Origin: Chloroflexota bacterium
GTDB lineage: Bacteria > Chloroflexota > Anaerolineae > UBA4142 > SHND01
Length of the DNA stretch: 64,000 bases
Assembly: GCA_029778615.1 (NCBI GenBank)
Contig: JAKOPZ010000208.1
Span: forward strand, 1-64,000
Reading direction: 5' to 3'
In this document: positions 10,186 through 17,682 of the stretch, piece after piece
How the letters are laid out: each line of letters opens with the position of its first letter
How positions within the stretch are numbered: the stretch's first letter is position 1
Program-made: the position numbers and the translations under genes
The notes under the pieces: model-generated
The model's input: the letters and a program-made list of their open reading frames with translations, nothing else
Told to the model about the DNA's origin: nothing
The model's database searches: none

Positions 10186-11042
10186 TTGTCTGTCGTCCGT
10201 CGTCGCATTACCGCATCCGTCATGCGGCATGCGCGGACTGCCGCTTGAACATCATGCACACGCACCATGTCCGCGCCTTGCGCGATGCACCACACGAGCG
10301 TTGCCAGCGTGCCCTCCAAGCGCTCCGGCACCGGCAAATTGAGCGTGAGTCCGATAACACTTTTGCGCGACGTGCCAATCAAAAGCGGAAGGTCTTGGAG
10401 CGCCGCATCCGTTTTGAATTCGTGCAAACGGCGGAGCAATTCCAAATTTTGTTGTAATCCTTTGCCAAAACCAATTCCCGGGTCGATAATGATTTTTCTA
10501 CGCGAAATTCCTGCGCGTGTTGCATCCTCCACGCGTGACGCGAGTTCCGAAGCAACCGCGCGCACAATATCCGGATTCTCGTACTCGACCTCATCATAAT
10601 GTCCGCCCCACGCGCTGCGGCGCGGCGGCGCGTCGCGATTGTGCATCAATACCACATACGCGTCGTGCGCGGCAATGACGTTTGCCATCCCAACATCGCG
10701 CGTCATTGCCCATACGTCGTTCACGATGGACGCGCCCGCGTCGAGCGCGCGTTGTGCCACCACCGCGCGTGAGGTGTCAATCGAAAGCGGAACCTTCACG
10801 CGCGCGGCAAGTTGTTTAATAACGGGCAGCACGCGCACCAATTCTTGGTCTGCATCAATGCGCGCGGAACCGGGGCGCGTGGATTCGCCGCCGACATCCA
10901 AAATGTCCGCGCCTTCGTCCACGAAACGCAAACCTTGCGCCACCGCCGCGTCCACATCCATCACCCCATCGCCCGAAAACGAATCGGGCGAGACATTCAC
11001 AATGCCCATGATGTAGGTGCGCGAGCCCCCTGCAAAATCCAT
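10182..11042 (-). CDS. folP: dihydropteroate synthase
   Basis: Pterin-binding motifs (GIVNVSPDSFSGDG, DVGGESTRPG, GxSRKS). Start uncertain: GTG at 11060, ATG at 11042 or ATG at 11009. Confidence 0.85.
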   Translation of the reverse strand: MDFAGGSRTYIMGIVNVSPDSFSGDGVMDVDAAVAQGLRFVDEGADILDVGGESTRPGSARIDADQELVRVLPVIKQLAARVKVPLSIDTSRAVVAQRALDAGASIVNDVWAMTRDVGMANVIAAHDAYVVLMHNRDAPPRRSAWGGHYDEVEYENPDIVRAVASELASRVEDATRAGISRRKIIIDPGIGFGKGLQQNLELLRRLHEFKTDAALQDLPLLIGTSRKSVIGLTLNLPVPERLEGTLATLVWCIAQGADMVRVHDVQAAVRACRMTDAVMRRRTTDK

Positions 11043-11061
11043 TTCGAATAAAATAGGCACT

Positions 11062-11095
11062 GCATATTTTCCGACAATGCAGTGCCTATTGGAAT
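11062..11095 (-). terminator. hairpin downstream of the RM genes (putative terminator)
   Basis: Stem AGGCACTGCAT / ATGCAGTGCCT. The U-tract is weak. Confidence 0.35.
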
Positions 11096-11110
11096 AAACC
11101 GTTTGTGTAA

Positions 11111-12069
11111 TTACTCGTATGGACCGAGAAATCGTTCCCCGTTAAAATGAATCAAGTGATCGGGGGTTTCAGAAACCCAGACATCCGTTTCCCAAGCAAT
11201 CTCCCTCAGATACCGCATCATTATTTTTCTGGAAGGAAACGCAGTCACAAAAACCAGAGGCAATAAAGAATCTTTGAAAAGATCTTTCAACTCATTGTGT
11301 CGCTTGATACCAATTGGACCGTGACTCGTCACAGCTTCGAGGAGGACGAGCCAACCCTTCGCGGGGTAATGAACGACTATGTCAGGCATCTTGCCGTGTT
11401 TGCTCAAGTGAATGCCAAGCGCTTTGAGAGCGAATTCATCGTAAACTTGCAATTTCTTACCCGCGTCTCCAAGGTAAATAACTTTGCCGTTCGGCGTATA
11501 TCGTGGGCAAAATTCGTGCACAATGTCACGAATCAATTTATTTTGCCCGCCGTTAGGTGCACTTCCAAGCCATCAGGCAAAGAGACCGGGTAAAGTTGTA
11601 GGTTTCTCTCACGCGCTTTGAGCCGATTCAGTTCTTTGGCAGTCCGCAAGTATGTGGCAAGATTACGGTCCCAGTCCTCAGTCCCAAACGACTGAATGAG
11701 ATTCAAAAAGGTTGGTTCAATTTGATAACGTGTATCAGGACTGTTGATAGGTCTGTCCAGGTCGTCAGGGTTTTTGACTACCAAGCCAAGTTGCAGGAAC
11801 TGGTGCATTGTATAACGTCGCACGGTTTCTCTTGTATTCTCAGCGTAGGTCACGCCAAAATTTTTGGCAAAAAAGCCCATCAGACCATGAATTCCTACCA
11901 ACGGTGCGGAAGCTGCCTGCCATGAGGTAGATGGTCGCACATTGGTCAAACCAAGTAATGTCAGAGCCGAACGCTGATTCTGTTGTTCTTTGGGAGCACC
12001 AATTGCCGCGAGAATCTGGCGAGCCTGCTCAATTTTTCGTTTTGCTTGTAGTGAAAGGTTATTACCCAT
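11111..12069 (-). pseudogene. BsuBI/PstI-family type II restriction endonuclease, split by a frameshift
   Basis: An internal ATG at 12069 with AGGAG 9 nt upstream begins a PstI-N-like domain (MGNNLSLQAKRKIEQARQIL...). This domain lies in the same frame as, and inside, the methyltransferase ORF. The C-terminal catalytic-domain ORF (11111..11536) is in a different frame. The two meet at a TTGA overlap within GGCAAAATAAATTGA. Combined length of about 320 aa matches PstI-family enzymes. Confidence 0.5.
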
Positions 12070-13638
12070 CTTCAATACTCCTAAAACAAGCTCGTCTAGT
12101 TCCTCTTGAGGGGGAAAACTCCCGCGTATATTTTCTCCAATCGTAAAAAGTTGTTCCCTACTTGGATAGACGAGATTGCGCAAATCTGTCGCATTGATCT
12201 GTGTGTGTCCACTAAATTGTCGAAAAAACTCGTCCACCATTGTTGAGTTCAAGTAAGCTGTAAGCCCGCGCGCCAAGGTTGGGTCGAGACCCCTGCCATT
12301 CATATGAAAGTAATTCAAATGATTCTCAATACCGTACCACTCGCCTTGGAGTTGGTGTGGGTCAAGTACTGCAGCAACCACACGCCGAATTTCCTCTTTT
12401 GCCGTTAAACGTTTGACAAGGACATATGTGTCACATGGTATCAACAAATTTTGTTGAGTGGCACTTTTGTCAATCGCAATGGGTTTGCGCGAGCCCCCAT
12501 TCGGGAAAACGACAAAGCCGTGCATCAAGTTATGTGGATGCAGGAGGGGAAAACTTGAAGAATTCAAACTGTACTGTAGTAAAGGAGTAGCCCGAAATTC
12601 GACAACCTTTCCCGTAGAAACTTGAATCCCTAAATCCTCTAATTTTCCTTCTAATACTCCAATTGTATTTCCGAGCGCATAATTCATTTCATCCGGTACT
12701 ATCCGTAGAAAAGATTCCGCATCTTGGGGTTTAATGACTTGGGTGGCAGGAACAGTTCTCTGTGTAATTAGGTCGTCCCCAGCCCCCTCCGTTGTTGAAA
12801 TGATGATGTGAGTTCCTTGCGGTTTCTTTGCGGCTGCCAAAATGATGGTCTCTTGTAAAACGCGGTCTCGTTTAAACACATCCTTGCGGTCATCAAACAG
12901 ATGAATTCGCTGCAAGGACATATGCTTGAGCAGAAATTTGCGAAAGGGTCGAAAATAAAGACCGTTTGCAAAACTGCGCGGAATAATTGCAACTAACTCT
13001 CCATCATTTTGCAAGAGTTTCGTCGCGAGCCACAAGAACGCCGCATACTGATTGGTAGTATCAACCTCCGCGCGCTTGAGTCGCTGGACTAGATTTGAAC
13101 GCCTCGACAATTTTCCATAGGGTGGGTTTAGTATCGCTGCATTAAACAGTCCGAAGCTGGGACGCAACAGTGTTCGCCCGCGCGCCAAATCCAAAGCAAT
13201 TTCCAAAAAATCATCTTGAATGATCTGGTATTGAAATGAGATAGGAGATTGCCTCAGTAACTTGGCAGCACTTTCGTACGCGGATTCAAGAAACGGAACG
13301 AGCCGTGCTTCAAGTTCAAAGGCTGTTAAATGAATTTGACGTGGGTGTCTTTGCCACTCGCTTGCTTGCGCCAAGAGTGCGATAGAAAGTGTGCCCAGCC
13401 CCGCTCCTGCATCAATAACTCGCAACTCGGTTGGGTGCTTTTCAAAGAGAGAAGCCATAAACTGCGCGGTAGGAACAGGTGTAAAGAACTGTCCATGCTC
13501 AGCGCGATTCGGCAGAGTGGGCGCAATTTCAAGTGCCAGCTCCTCAATTCGCTGAAACAACTTTTCCCAACCAAGTTGCTTGGGGAATGTCGGCGATGCA
13601 TTTGCAATATCAACAGCAGAATTCAGATTTGCAATCAC
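11533..13638 (-). CDS. gamma-class N6-adenine DNA methyltransferase (Eco57I/PstI-like, TaqI-like C-terminal TRD); ORF continues without a stop into the REase N-domain
   Basis: Motif I VIDAGAGLGTL and motif IV NPPYGK. TaqI_C-like region of about residues 360-505. GTG start overlaps the stop of the upstream MBL gene (GTGA). Region GC is lower (about 47-48% by eye). Confidence 0.75.
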   Translation of the reverse strand: MIANLNSAVDIANASPTFPKQLGWEKLFQRIEELALEIAPTLPNRAEHGQFFTPVPTAQFMASLFEKHPTELRVIDAGAGLGTLSIALLAQASEWQRHPRQIHLTAFELEARLVPFLESAYESAAKLLRQSPISFQYQIIQDDFLEIALDLARGRTLLRPSFGLFNAAILNPPYGKLSRRSNLVQRLKRAEVDTTNQYAAFLWLATKLLQNDGELVAIIPRSFANGLYFRPFRKFLLKHMSLQRIHLFDDRKDVFKRDRVLQETIILAAAKKPQGTHIIISTTEGAGDDLITQRTVPATQVIKPQDAESFLRIVPDEMNYALGNTIGVLEGKLEDLGIQVSTGKVVEFRATPLLQYSLNSSSFPLLHPHNLMHGFVVFPNGGSRKPIAIDKSATQQNLLIPCDTYVLVKRLTAKEEIRRVVAAVLDPHQLQGEWYGIENHLNYFHMNGRGLDPTLARGLTAYLNSTMVDEFFRQFSGHTQINATDLRNLVYPSREQLFTIGENIRGSFPPQEELDELVLGVLKMGNNLSLQAKRKIEQARQILAAIGAPKEQQNQRSALTLLGLTNVRPSTSWQAASAPLVGIHGLMGFFAKNFGVTYAENTRETVRRYTMHQFLQLGLVVKNPDDLDRPINSPDTRYQIEPTFLNLIQSFGTEDWDRNLATYLRTAKELNRLKARERNLQLYPVSLPDGLEVHLTAGKIN

Positions 13639-14570
13639 AATTCAATCGTCATGCCTTCGCGCGCGACAAATGTTGTCGGACGCACCAATTGCGCGCGCTT
13701 TTCAATTTCTTCCAACGTCTCGTCATCGTGTTCCGGCTCGTGATGAAACAACGCGAGCTGTTTTACATTTGCCGCGTTCGCCGTTTCAACTGCCATGCGC
13801 CACGTGGAATGTCCCCACCCTTGACGCGGCGTGGGCGCATCCAAATACAACGCGTCCGTATATTGTGCGTCGTGCGCCATCAAGTCCGCGCCCTGCGCAA
13901 ATTTGATGAGCCGCTGATAGTTGCCCACATACGATTCCACATCGGTGGCGAATACAAACGCGCGTCCTTGAAAATTCACGCGATACACAAAAACGCCTTG
14001 CGGGTGCGCCGCCGATTTCAAAACCTGCACGCACAGCGCGCCGTTGTCCACCGCCTGTGCAATCGCTTTTTCGTCGCGCTGTGACCACATCACGCGCGGT
14101 TCGCCCGGCGTGCCATGGAACATGATAACTTCGCCTTCGTTCAAATTACGCACCACGCGTTCACACGGCAGTTCGTCTACGGTGATTGGAAAAACGGGCG
14201 GCAGCATCGAGAGCGCCAGAACGCGCGCCAAATCTTCGTTCAGACTCTTTGGACCAAAAATATACAAAGTGGTCAATTGATAACGCGCGGGCGTGAAAAA
14301 GGGAAAGCCCTGCGTGTGGTCGTGGTGTGTGTGCGTGAAAAAAATGGTGAGATTGAGTGGATTCGACTCGGGCTTGTACTCTTGCGTCAACAGTTTGCCG
14401 AGATGGATAATGCCGGTGCCCGCGTCAAATATCAAATTATGTTCGCCCGCGCGCACGTGCACACAGGGAGTGTTACCGCCGATGCGCGCGGTTTTGGGCC
14501 CCGGCGTCGGGTAACTTCCGCGCACCCCATAGAATGTTACAGCAAAAGGTTCCGCCATGATTTGGTTCAA
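13635..14570 (-). CDS. MBL-fold metallo-hydrolase
   Basis: HTHHDH zinc-binding motif and beta-lactamase-fold pattern. Confidence 0.75.
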   Translation of the reverse strand: MNQIMAEPFAVTFYGVRGSYPTPGPKTARIGGNTPCVHVRAGEHNLIFDAGTGIIHLGKLLTQEYKPESNPLNLTIFFTHTHHDHTQGFPFFTPARYQLTTLYIFGPKSLNEDLARVLALSMLPPVFPITVDELPCERVVRNLNEGEVIMFHGTPGEPRVMWSQRDEKAIAQAVDNGALCVQVLKSAAHPQGVFVYRVNFQGRAFVFATDVESYVGNYQRLIKFAQGADLMAHDAQYTDALYLDAPTPRQGWGHSTWRMAVETANAANVKQLALFHHEPEHDDETLEEIEKRAQLVRPTTFVAREGMTIEL

Positions 14571-14573
14571 CTC

Positions 14574-15737
14574 TCAATCAATGGTCTGATTTTGCGACAA
14601 TTCGGCTTGCTGCACAATGGGAAGGGAAAACCGAAAAACACTGCCCTGCCCCAACAGAGATTCTGCCCAAATGCGCCCGCCATGCGCCTCGACAATGCCT
14701 TTGGCAATAGCAAGCCCCAAGCCGCTGCCGCCCACTTGGCGCGTGCTCGCACTGTCCACCTGAAAAAAACGGTCAAAGATGCGTTCCAAAAATTCGCGCG
14801 CAATGCCCGGTCCTTGGTCTGCAATGCTCACAATCACTTCGCCCGACAGGGCAGCCGCGTCCGGCAGTACCACTTCGCACGTTACTGTCACCTGTCCACC
14901 GTCCGGTGCGTACTTGATGGCATTCTCTAAAAGATTATTCAATACTTGACGAATGCGGCGCGGGTCCGCCCACACGCGCGGAAGTTCCGCAGGCAAGTCC
15001 ATCACGAACCAATGCGCCTCTGTGCGGCGCTGCGCGTTCTCTACCGCCTCGCGCAGCAGTCCGCGCAACTGTACCGGTTCGCGGTGAATGCGCAACGCGC
15101 CCGCTTCCACCTGCGACATGTCGAGCAAGTTGTCAATCAATTCTTCGAGGCGATTGCTTTCTTCTTCGATGATACGCAAAAATTCGCGCTGGGTCGCCTC
15201 GTCCCAACGCACGTCCTGACGCAAGAGCGTGGTGGCAAAACCTTTGATGGATGCGAGCGGCGTCCGCAGCTCGTGCGAAACGGTAGACAGCAGCTGCGTC
15301 TTCATCTGGTCAAATTCTTTTTCGTGCGTCACATCGCGCCACAGTACGCCGTATGCGTTTCCATCACCCGCCTTTAACGCAAACCATTTTGCTTCGATGA
15401 CGCGTTCACGCGGCGCGCGCAATGTAAATTCGAAACGCGGCAGCGTGTCTGCATTCTGCGCGTGCTGCAAGAACTGCTCCGCCAACTCTGTGCCCATTGC
15501 GGAATTTTCGGCGAGGGCGCGATAAACTTCTGCGATGGGTTGTCCGTTCCATTCTGCCGCATCCATGCCAAACAGTTCGGTCGCGCGCGGATTGAGAAGG
15601 AGAATGCGCCCCGCATCATCCACCAACGTTACGCCATCGGCAAGACTCAAGAGCGCGTCCGTGGCGAGCTCTTGTGTGGAAATGCCCACCATCGTTTTGA
15701 ATAAATTTTCGCGCGGGACCAGTACTGCGCTAGCCAT
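14574..15737 (-). CDS. sensor histidine kinase (PAS + HisKA + HATPase_c), cytoplasmic
   Basis: H-box SHELRTPL and N/G1/G2 boxes (NLLENAIKYAP, DQGPGI, GSGLGLAI). No response regulator is adjacent. Confidence 0.8.
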   Translation of the reverse strand: MASAVLVPRENLFKTMVGISTQELATDALLSLADGVTLVDDAGRILLLNPRATELFGMDAAEWNGQPIAEVYRALAENSAMGTELAEQFLQHAQNADTLPRFEFTLRAPRERVIEAKWFALKAGDGNAYGVLWRDVTHEKEFDQMKTQLLSTVSHELRTPLASIKGFATTLLRQDVRWDEATQREFLRIIEEESNRLEELIDNLLDMSQVEAGALRIHREPVQLRGLLREAVENAQRRTEAHWFVMDLPAELPRVWADPRRIRQVLNNLLENAIKYAPDGGQVTVTCEVVLPDAAALSGEVIVSIADQGPGIAREFLERIFDRFFQVDSASTRQVGGSGLGLAIAKGIVEAHGGRIWAESLLGQGSVFRFSLPIVQQAELSQNQTID

Positions 15738-16323
15738 TCTTCTTTTTCGCGCGCGGCGCTTTTGGTTTTTCGTCGCCGGTGAATAACGGCAAATGTCCGA
15801 GCGCCTGAATGTGTCCCCACTGTGCGCGTTCGCCTTCGGTGAACACGGCAGCTTCCGCCACCACTTTCGCGCCCGCGCGGTCCATCAGCAAACGCATTCC
15901 TTGCAGCGTACTGCCCGTGCTGATTACATCGTCTACCAAAATGACGCGCCTGCCGCGCACCGCGCTGTGGTCTTTTTCGTCGAGGTATAACGTTTGGGGT
16001 TTGCCGGTGGTGATGGAGAGCGTTTCGGCGCTGAGGACGTTGCCCATGTACGGTTTGTAATCTTTACGCAGCACCACATACGGTTTGTTCAATTCGATGG
16101 AGAGATGATACGCGAGCGGAATGCTTTTGGCTTCGGCGGTGACCAAAACATCCGCTTCCACCTTTGCCAATTTTTTGGCAAGTCCATGCGCGGCGGCAAT
16201 GGTAATTTCCGTATCGCCGAGCAAATTAAAAACCGCGATGCGGAGCTGCGGGCTGACGGCGAACAGAGGAAGATGGCGCGTGACGCCTTCAATGCGAACG
16301 GTATACGTATCACGTTTTGGCAT
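15730..16323 (-). CDS. phosphoribosyltransferase (type I PRT fold)
   Basis: PRPP-binding loop VILVDDVISTGSTL. An 8-nt overlap with the HK gene. Confidence 0.7.
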   Translation of the reverse strand: MPKRDTYTVRIEGVTRHLPLFAVSPQLRIAVFNLLGDTEITIAAAHGLAKKLAKVEADVLVTAEAKSIPLAYHLSIELNKPYVVLRKDYKPYMGNVLSAETLSITTGKPQTLYLDEKDHSAVRGRRVILVDDVISTGSTLQGMRLLMDRAGAKVVAEAAVFTEGERAQWGHIQALGHLPLFTGDEKPKAPRAKKKNG

Positions 16324-16404
16324 ATGTTGCTCCAATTTTTTTTGTACGCGGACCCACGCAGAAAAATTTTGTGCGTGTCACTTGTAGGAAATGCGCGGTT
16401 TGAA

Positions 16405-17682
16405 CTATTCTGCGGGTTCGGCGACGACATGCGTTGTGCTGTGTGGTGTCGGCACGAGAAAAATCAGAATCGCGAGCGTCACCATCGCAAAAATCAAATT
16501 GGCGACGAACGGCGCATAAAAGCCCACGTTGTCGTATAAAAATCCGCCAATGTACGACGCGGGAAACGCAAGCACGCCACTGAACGCGGACAAGCGCCCA
16601 AAAATTTCACCGCGCCGCGCGGGTTCCACCGTTTGCGTCACATACACATTGCGCGCGGGCACCCACGTGGCAGCGGTGAGCGCGAAAATGGACATGGACG
16701 CGGCGAAAATTTCAAAACGCGTTTGGGTCATCCAAATAAGCATCAACGGCGGCGCGAGCGCTTCGGACAAAATCAGAATTGGACGCGCGCCAATTTTATC
16801 TACTAAACGTCCAATCGGCAGTGAAGTCAACGCCCACGTGATGCTGCTGACGGATGACATGATGCCCAGCTGCGTTGTGGAAAAATCATATTCTTGGCGC
16901 AGCAAGCCGTACAAAATGCCAAAGCCCATGCCCCACGCGAACATGTCCATTGCGATAGCAATGAAAAACCAACGCAGTTCGCGCGGCGGCACCCACGCGC
17001 GTTTCAGAAAATCAAAAATCGCGCGGCGGGCAACGGAACCGGGTTCCGCCGCTGACCGTCGCTCGCGCAGATATTTCCAAATCAACAAAAACGCGGCGGC
17101 TTCAAACGCAACCGCGACGGGAAAGACAAAGGTGAACCCAAAACGGTCCGCCACCGCGCCCGCGAGAATCGGCACAAAAATTCCGGGCGCGATGACCACA
17201 ATCATAACGAGCGAGTACGCGCTGCCGCGATTCTTGGCGCCGACGGATTCACCCACAAGCGCGCTGTTCACCGGTTGGTACACTTGCGAAATGCCGAGCA
17301 GCATAATGGCGGGGACCAACACCAACAGCGCGCCAAACCAACCCGCCACCGCGTACAAACCAAACGCGCCCATCGCCGCGCACGACGCGCCGAGCAAAAC
17401 AATTTTGCGTCCGCGTTGGTCGGCAATCCATCCGCCCCACGGATACGCGAGCGTGGGAATCAAGCCGCCGAACCCACCGAGCGAATTCAAAAGTCCCAAC
17501 TGCGACATGCTCGCGCCGAGCGACAACACAAATGGTTGAAACACCACGCCGACCATGCTCTGTTCGATTCCACTCACGAATGAACGTGCGATGACGGCGA
17601 TTAGCGTCTGATTGAGAAACACACGCGAGCGGAGAGAGGCGAGTACAGACATGGGACCCGATTCAGAAAAGGCGGACAGCAT
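16405..17682 (-). CDS. MFS transporter
   Basis: About 12 TM segments with MFS motif GxxADRxGRK (GWIADQRGRK). The N-terminus of the longer ORF is translation of the CATTG word repeat, so the start is placed at MLSAF (17682) or MSVLA (17652). Confidence 0.75.
   Translation of the reverse strand: MLSAFSESGPMSVLASLRSRVFLNQTLIAVIARSFVSGIEQSMVGVVFQPFVLSLGASMSQLGLLNSLGGFGGLIPTLAYPWGGWIADQRGRKIVLLGASCAAMGAFGLYAVAGWFGALLVLVPAIMLLGISQVYQPVNSALVGESVGAKNRGSAYSLVMIVVIAPGIFVPILAGAVADRFGFTFVFPVAVAFEAAAFLLIWKYLRERRSAAEPGSVARRAIFDFLKRAWVPPRELRWFFIAIAMDMFAWGMGFGILYGLLRQEYDFSTTQLGIMSSVSSITWALTSLPIGRLVDKIGARPILILSEALAPPLMLIWMTQTRFEIFAASMSIFALTAATWVPARNVYVTQTVEPARRGEIFGRLSAFSGVLAFPASYIGGFLYDNVGFYAPFVANLIFAMVTLAILIFLVPTPHSTTHVVAEPAE

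Follow-up and report, generated by a model that had tools for sequence, protein, structure and literature searches.

The restriction endonuclease SdaI pairs a winged-helix recognition domain with a PD-(D/E)XK variant whose catalytic lysine has migrated, and a few members of the R.SdaI subfamily that are fused to a DNA methyltransferase (MTase) are mentioned in passing in the same study (PMC2441816). Natural fusions have also been predicted for restriction-modification (R-M) systems whose genes lie head to tail, with BsuBI named as a candidate (PMC3039593). The combined enzymes that have been characterized carry the nuclease at the N-terminus and share one specificity module; BtgZI, with its alpha-class methylase, is the exception (PMC4081073). 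Our full-text literature searches returned no biochemical study of a fused PstI-type family, only that one prediction and that one brief mention. Here we describe such a gene, located between the gene for a metallo-β-lactamase (MBL)-fold hydrolase and folP, in the first 64,000 nucleotides of contig JAKOPZ010000208.1 from a Chloroflexota bacterium (assembly GCA_029778615.1; the whole of this stretch is referred to below as the window). We consider it likely that a fused BsuBI/PstI-type R-M gene was acquired horizontally at this site, and that a small deletion has since cut off its cutting domain and left the methylase in place. The parts of the gene are as follows.

11533..13638 (−): long open reading frame (ORF) of 701 aa, methylase plus the winged helix-turn-helix (wHTH) recognition domain of the nuclease, ended by a premature TGA that the predicted frameshift creates
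12070..13638 (−): methylase part (aa 1-523), predicted gamma-class N6-adenine DNA methyltransferase (PF07669, PF02384)
12067..12082 (−): internal ribosome-binding site (RBS) AGGAG (12078-12082) and ATG (12067-12069, Met524) at the methylase/nuclease junction
11629..12039 (−): N-terminal wHTH DNA-recognition domain of the BsuBI/PstI-type nuclease (aa 534-670; PF17728)
11545..11553 (−): frameshift site within ACGGCGGGC, placed by frame translations, profile scores and tblastn segments
11533-11547 (−): junction string GGCAAAATAAATTGA
within 11530-11560: deleted form of the lesion site in the window, ACGGCGGGCAAAAT
11111..11589 (−): PD-(D/E)XK catalytic domain of the nuclease (PF06616), its first ~15 residues in the frame of the long ORF and the remainder in the 141-aa ORF
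11111..11536 (−): 141-aa ORF (ORF2) in a different frame, its TTG start overlapping the TGA of the long ORF (TTGA)

The nuclease part of the long ORF matches the Pfam family BsuBI_PstI_RE_N (PF17728; E = 5.2e-47) at aa 534-670 over profile positions 2-138 of 140. ORF2 taken alone matches BsuBI_PstI_RE (PF06616; E = 5.6e-52) over profile positions 22-154 of 154, and after repair of the frame the coverage extends to positions 2-154. These two domains do not form one uninterrupted polypeptide in the window; the frameshift at 11545-11553 parts them. A profile of the family aligns with SdaI (PDB 2ixs) over residues 11-322 (E = 2.4e-97), including the PD...EAV segment, and the nuclease part shares 50.8% identity with the endonuclease of the BsuBI/PstI-type pair found in Stx2 phages.

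In the first half of the long ORF, Pfam models for Eco57I (PF07669; 7e-13) and N6_Mtase (PF02384) are matched. The S-adenosylmethionine (AdoMet) motif DAGAGLG (aa 76-82) and the NPPY motif (aa 171-174; 13117-13128) both lie in invariant alignment columns, and every invariant column is kept by the methylase of the window, in an alignment of 21 sequences as well as in one of 48. Its identity with the M.BsuBI-like methylase of the Stx2 phages is 38%. An AlphaFold model of the 701-aa product (mean predicted local distance difference test 85.4, predicted template-modeling score 0.81) has M.BseCI, CamA and M.TaqI as its closest structures; the target-normalized TM-score is 0.74-0.75 against the whole of M.TaqI and 0.62 against M.BseCI and CamA. 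The model speaks for an N6-adenine methylase of the gamma class whose recognition domain is of TaqI type, this last point on structural grounds, since the Pfam model TaqI_C matched none of 21 family members at E ≤ 1. A preliminary description of this stretch, drawn up from its letters, had reported the two ORFs in different frames, with a BsuBI/PstI-family nuclease interrupted beside an apparently intact Eco57I-like gamma methylase with an NPPY motif; the two ORFs are there as reported, and both family calls were borne out, the nuclease call by the Pfam search that the description had itself proposed as a check. Its TaqI-like target recognition domain has the superposition of the predicted structure on M.TaqI in its favor, and no match to the TaqI_C model of Pfam.

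The preliminary description had further read the continuous frame through methylase and nuclease as the loss of a methylase stop codon in this genome. Among relatives, however, the fusion is the rule: in a search with the 701-aa ORF, ~100 of the best 120 proteins are single chains of ~835 aa with all three domains. In a scan of GTDB representatives (one genome per species, the genome of the window not being included), relatives turned up in the genomes of at least 599 species, and the counts out of 80 given below refer to the best 80 loci from these. They come from Chloroflexota, Cyanobacteria, Acidobacteriota, Planctomycetota, Myxococcota, Gemmatimonadota and other phyla, and all of them match the repaired query up to its last residues, 74 of the 80 in one uninterrupted frame. 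A single ORF with both catalytic domains, the mark of a type IIC enzyme, is thus present in those 74 relatives, and the window departs from it through its frameshift. Culturable bacteria that carry an intact fusion include Chloroflexus sp. MS-G, Myxococcus xanthus AM003 and Nostoc spp. Two loci (L058 and L083) have a stop codon exactly in the linker between methylase and nuclease with an ATG or GTG directly after it, i.e., they are unfused two-gene forms, and in the Stx2-phage relative a methylase gene (459 aa) and an endonuclease gene (317 aa) lie head to tail in different frames with a 4-nt overlap. Judged by sequence, the gene in the window is a member of a widespread family of fused BsuBI/PstI-type R-M genes, and since 74 of 80 relatives from across phyla have the fusion, the in-frame arrangement is read here as the normal and ancestral architecture of the family and not as a product of this genome. 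The reverse type of decay is seen in a metagenomic relative of the fused family (P0242, 342 aa), in which an internal deletion joins the N-terminus of the methylase (to about residue 110) to the middle of the HTH domain; the methylase core is gone and the cutting domain of the nuclease is retained.

Intact relatives read ...LPDGxxVxLTxGGQNxLIKxI... around the site at which the window changes frame, and the GGQN is at least 90% conserved. The long frame of the window gives LPDGLEVHLTAG, followed by KIN and the stop codon, and the other frame gives (N)GGQNKLIRDI, so that homology in the frame of ORF2 reaches upstream to GGC GGG CAA AAT (GGQN; 11540-11551). Homology in this second frame starts at 11551, that in the first frame ends at 11545-11548, and both tblastn segments include residues 696-699. 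Because the family-conserved GGQN is read in the frame of ORF2, the shift must precede the CAA at 11545, and these alignments place the frame change in ACGGCGGGC (11545-11553; GCGGGC), 1-8 nt upstream of the tract of four A residues at 11541-11544. When candidate repairs were scored against a profile of 74 intact relatives, restoration of 4 nt (GGGC) reached 1104.1 bits, addition of one G 1095.7 bits and addition of one A 1094.4 bits; the 4-nt repair is thus 8-10 bits above either 1-nt repair, and the 1-nt repairs are only 1.3 bits apart. The most likely event is a 4-nt deletion that took one GGGC unit out of an ancestral GGGCGGGC, the alternative being the loss of a single nucleotide. The preliminary description had proposed that one A inserted at the junction would fuse the two parts of the nuclease. 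One base inserted into the junction string does yield a fused protein of 842 aa, whose part from Met524 onward measures 319 aa, but the shift itself does not lie in the A-tract.

A Logan contig assembled from SRR15686344 aligns with 8.4 kb of the window with 4 mismatches and no gaps, and its junction is identical. A protein (P0001) that is identical to the 701-aa ORF is found both in NCBI and in the independent Logan assembly. On these comparisons, we take the lesion to be genuine and not an artefact. It looks recent, because the cutting domain differs from its relatives at only one of 49 family-conserved positions, the other 48 being kept, as is typical of intact members. The four single-nucleotide differences between the window and the Logan contig (8842, 9749, 10690 and 10692) are all in folC or folP and suggest strain-level variation in the sampled population.

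Related genes have been damaged in the same part. An orthologous R-M gene lies at the same MBL-folP site in Logan contig L084 (SRR25057004; L084:3880-5998), with a protein 59% identical to that of the window next to an MBL protein that is 82% identical. Past the HTH domain this gene is interrupted by a nonsense codon; it has also undergone a frameshift and lost 132 codons (residues 696-827), and with them the catalytic core. Its final 15 residues match those of the window exactly, and its GC content at third codon positions (GC3) is 0.57, vs. 0.67-0.70 in the flanks. Roseiflexus castenholzii (CP000804; L002:5980-6010) and a second locus (L003) have a single in-frame TGA between the HTH and the catalytic domains, after which an ORF of 165-172 aa for the catalytic domain starts at a conserved Met. 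In metagenomic proteins related to the Roseiflexus copy, the frameshifted tails at the end differ from one another and contain degenerate residues, and nonsense or frameshift lesions, all of them in the nuclease part, are present at four further loci (L050, L067, L070 and L076). Such a pattern is the one to be expected where cells tolerate losing the nuclease but not the methylase. Arranged side by side, these loci can be read as a series of R-M decay in place, from the intact fusion through a frameshift and then a nonsense codon with deletion of the core to an empty site, possibly with a scar of the 5' end. The loci with the in-frame TGA (L002 and L003) are followed by a pair of DUF6414 genes and by a further methylase gene, of the N6_N4 type.

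Several other explanations of the interrupted frame have to be weighed against a genuine deletion. Single indels are a common class of error in metagenome-assembled genomes, and a downstream domain without decay is what one would see if the organism in fact had an intact fused R-M gene of ~843 aa; yet the same lesion recurs in a contig from a separate assembly, in which four single-nucleotide polymorphisms lie elsewhere, the site has no long homopolymer, its best repair takes 4 nt and not 1 nt, and the ortholog in L084 is plainly without this domain. An artefact of sequencing or assembly is therefore improbable in our estimate. Less probable still is a functional split, in which the methylase-HTH protein and a 141-aa cutting subunit made by re-initiation at the TTGA would form an active two-subunit enzyme. 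The overlap of stop and start, the intact cutting domain and the likewise separate PF06616 ORF that follows the methylase-HTH ORF of R. castenholzii would fit it, whereas ORF2 lacks profile positions 1-21, the GGQN motif among them, and has a weak TTG start and no Shine-Dalgarno motif; the splits in other lineages differ in place and kind, several with degenerate residues, which is a pattern of decay.

On slightly lower ground still stands the account of the preliminary description, in which a two-gene system lost its methylase stop codon in this genome and the nuclease was turned off, possibly reversibly, through the length of the A-tract. One A added within AAAA (11541-11544) does restore a single frame, at a profile score just 1.3 bits under that of the 1-nt G repair, but the frame of ORF2 already encodes GGQN upstream of the tract, and it is mainly because this in-frame GGQ would then be a coincidence that the A-tract is disfavored. 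The fusion in 74 of 80 relatives across phyla speaks against a local loss of the stop codon, and that claim has to be given up. The idea of a homopolymer-switchable nuclease is not supported either: phase-variable genes have a long homopolymer or short tandem repeat, the runs here are only A4 and G3, which is far shorter than known phase-variable tracts and too short for slipped-strand switching, and the independent assembly has the same length, with no length variant. The least credible of the alternatives, which we regard as close to negligible, is programmed −1 ribosomal frameshifting at G GGC AAA that would give a low level of full-length enzyme. If tRNA-Gly slipped back from GGC onto GGG, the product would read TAGQN, comparable to the AGQN of SdaI, and a hairpin begins 8 nt downstream; the site contains no slippery heptamer of the type X XXY YYZ, however, the hairpin (−8.2 kcal/mol, z = −0.59) is no more stable than those of shuffled sequences and hence no convincing stimulator, and the intact relatives need no recoding.

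Four points weigh against the deletion and the orphan methylase that we favor. A consensus error common to both assemblies is conceivable, and the two may also stem from the same sample. The count of lesions confined to the nuclease is biased, both searches having been anchored on the methylase part. The ORF for the cutting domain is undecayed and its TTG start overlaps the stop codon, so it may be expressed separately to some extent. Finally, 7 of the 108 conserved positions of the methylase part are changed, a deviation that is equaled or exceeded by only three of 74 intact members and thus sits in their upper tail; that the methylase is active is therefore assumed here.

At the junction between methylase and nuclease, the window has an ATG (Met524) in the frame of the long ORF, preceded by AGGAG at a spacing of 8 nt. 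The preliminary description had pointed out this internal start, with a spacing of 9 nt. Of the 80 fused relatives, 65 have the junction Met, which lies within a variable linker, and at 37 of these 65 loci GGAG, GAGG or AGGA occurs 4-17 nt upstream of it, vs. 7% of 1131 other in-frame ATG codons of the same genes (Fisher p = 6e-24). Resampling of synonymous codons according to the usage of each gene predicts 18.8-18.9 ± 3 motifs where 37 are found (z ~6.2), and at 12 control columns with a conserved Met the motif was at or below expectation each time (z −0.25 to −2.9); these statistics come from sequences that are not phylogenetically independent. A second conserved Met (window position 680) was considered as an internal start and rejected, as Shine-Dalgarno motifs are depleted in front of it (8 vs. 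15.7 expected, z = −2.9). The loci without the motif at the junction Met are nearly all cyanobacterial. Two nucleases that stand alone (P0244 and P0246) have their start codon at the position equivalent to Met524, and the window copy has kept AGGAG-N8-ATG even though its nuclease is broken, its nested nuclease frame measuring 319 aa when repaired.

Collectively, these data suggest that the internal RBS and ATG are the signature of a retained start site, with a nuclease gene nested in the fusion ORF. The fused genes could then each be a "gene within a gene" with two products, the long protein of methylase plus nuclease and, separately, a nuclease of ~320 aa, an idea that we put forward tentatively, at somewhat short of an even chance. 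There is a precedent for two products of one gene in McrB-L and McrB-S, which arise through internal translation initiation (PMC12707154). If the fused genes do work in this manner, translation would govern the balance between the two activities, a control layout that has not been described for type II restriction-modification; the literature we searched held no description of a nested start in fused PstI-type genes.

The proposed course of events starts from an intact ORF of ~835 aa that would have encoded, in this order, a gamma-class methylase with a TaqI-type recognition domain, a PstI/SdaI-like wHTH domain and a PD-(D/E)XK domain, with the nuclease probably also made on its own from the conserved junction RBS and ATG. 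A small deletion ~20 residues into the cutting domain, most likely of one GGGC unit (11545-11553), would have shifted the frame so that the long ORF now stops at 11533. The remaining products would be the 701-aa fusion of methylase and recognition domain and perhaps a 178-aa fragment with the recognition domain; a nuclease with its cutting domain attached could no longer be made, leaving a methylase that recently lost its partner nuclease. The locus probably acts today as an orphan methylase that carries the recognition domain of a nuclease. For annotation, this would mean one frameshifted fused R-M gene (a probable orphan methylase) and not a methylase gene followed by a split endonuclease gene. 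Loss of the nuclease appears to be an ordinary genomic event for such genes, and the conserved nested start of the family is their noteworthy part.

The base composition of the gene sets it apart from its surroundings. Its GC content is 0.46 and its GC3 0.43-0.49, vs. 0.55-0.58 and 0.61-0.64 in the five flanking genes. Four relatives (L085-L088) share the order of genes for histidine kinase, MBL-fold hydrolase, FolP and FolC and encode MBL proteins that are 83-88% identical to that of the window, but their MBL gene is followed directly by folP, with nothing between; the named MBL homologs are from Anaerolineae or Chloroflexota. The lower-GC islet recognized in the preliminary description is thus upheld, and we conclude from composition and synteny that the R-M gene was acquired horizontally into the MBL-folP spacer.

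The empty spacers have features of their own. In the spacer of L088 (Logan SRR32818020; L088:7961-8011), a statistically weak match could be a 17-codon relic of the 5' end of an R-M gene, in the same orientation and place as in the window (NKPSSFPKHSAWGTLFQ vs. NASPTFPKQLGWEKLFQ in the window); if this relic is real, the insertion would be older than the split of these lineages. The spacers of L085 (7925-8092) and L086 (7925-8165) contain short tandem-like repeats (GGAGATGGGAGACTGGAGACTGGAGATT; GCGATAGGCGATACGCAATTAGCGATTAGCGATACGCGAT) and, immediately ahead of folP, a conserved hairpin plus T-run.

Two further features connect the R-M gene to its neighbors.

13635..13638 (−): GTGA overlap of the MBL-fold hydrolase stop codon with the GTG start of the R-M gene
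11045..11090 (−): putative intrinsic terminator between the R-M stop codon and folP, a perfect 14-bp hairpin followed by UUUUAUU

The overlap with the upstream MBL operon is as the preliminary description gave it. This GTG is the only canonical start of the long ORF and no Shine-Dalgarno motif precedes it, so that the ORF is probably translated through coupling to the MBL gene; in the ortholog of L084 the R-M gene has its own ATG, 43 nt past the MBL stop codon. The terminator-like hairpin has a folding energy of −22.6 kcal/mol (z = −4.45; none of 200 shuffled sequences was as stable), and its loop of 11 nt caused a consensus scan to miss it. That scan for promoters and terminators (10800-16500) gave sites not above those of shuffled sequences, and no promoter-like site stands out. 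Rfam had no match in the whole window, and no NCBIfam model reached its cut-off.

The identity of 51% (endonuclease) and 38% (methylase) to the BsuBI-like system of the Stx2 phages points to CTGCAG, or a sequence related to it, as the probable target. CTGCAG occurs three times in the window against 18 expected, a depletion no greater than that of a typical palindrome, and since depletion affects most palindromes, avoidance of this site tells nothing about specificity. The oligonucleotide bias of the window is extreme. Compared with the expectation from base composition, 35 of the 64 six-base palindromes reach less than a quarter of the expected number in the window (1-64000), and GGCC (7 vs. 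351), GATC (18 vs. 246) and CTAG (13 vs. 246) are rare; CGCG (1739 vs. 351), GCGC (1411 vs. 351), CGCGCG (342 vs. 26) and AAATTT (75 vs. 9) are strongly over-represented.

Among known systems, the type IIP pair of BsuBI/PstI type in Stx2 phages (TL-2011c; JQ011318) has homologous parts with the same Pfam domains in the same order, methylase before endonuclease, but is made of two overlapping genes, whereas the window and most of its close relatives have one in-frame ORF, with the cutting domain frameshifted in the window. The nuclease of the window shares its N-terminal winged-helix domain and its C-terminal PD-(D/E)XK variant with SdaI, a stand-alone enzyme that recognizes CCTGCAGG, and differs from it in being fused to a methylase and broken. 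McrB-L and McrB-S would be analogous only if the internal RBS and ATG, for which the case here is built on sequence statistics, are in use, and the proteins are unrelated. Like the gene in the window, the type IIC/IIG enzymes Eco57I, MmeI and BpuSI combine methylase and nuclease in one chain, with a gamma-class methylase and an NPPY motif. The N-terminal nuclease and single shared recognition module of type IIG enzymes are absent here; instead, the family of the window places the methylase first, with a recognition domain of its own, and ends in a complete type IIP-like nuclease that has its own wHTH domain. The engineered RM.Eco29kI fusion (PMC3039593) follows the same concept, a type IIC enzyme obtained by joining adjacent endonuclease and methylase genes in frame, and the MTase-fused R.SdaI subfamily (PMC2441816) and the predicted natural fusions (PMC3039593) come closest by description, but were only predicted or mentioned as a few members. 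The comparison thus points to a large family, biochemically uncharacterized as far as we found, whose layout is unlike that of every characterized combined enzyme.

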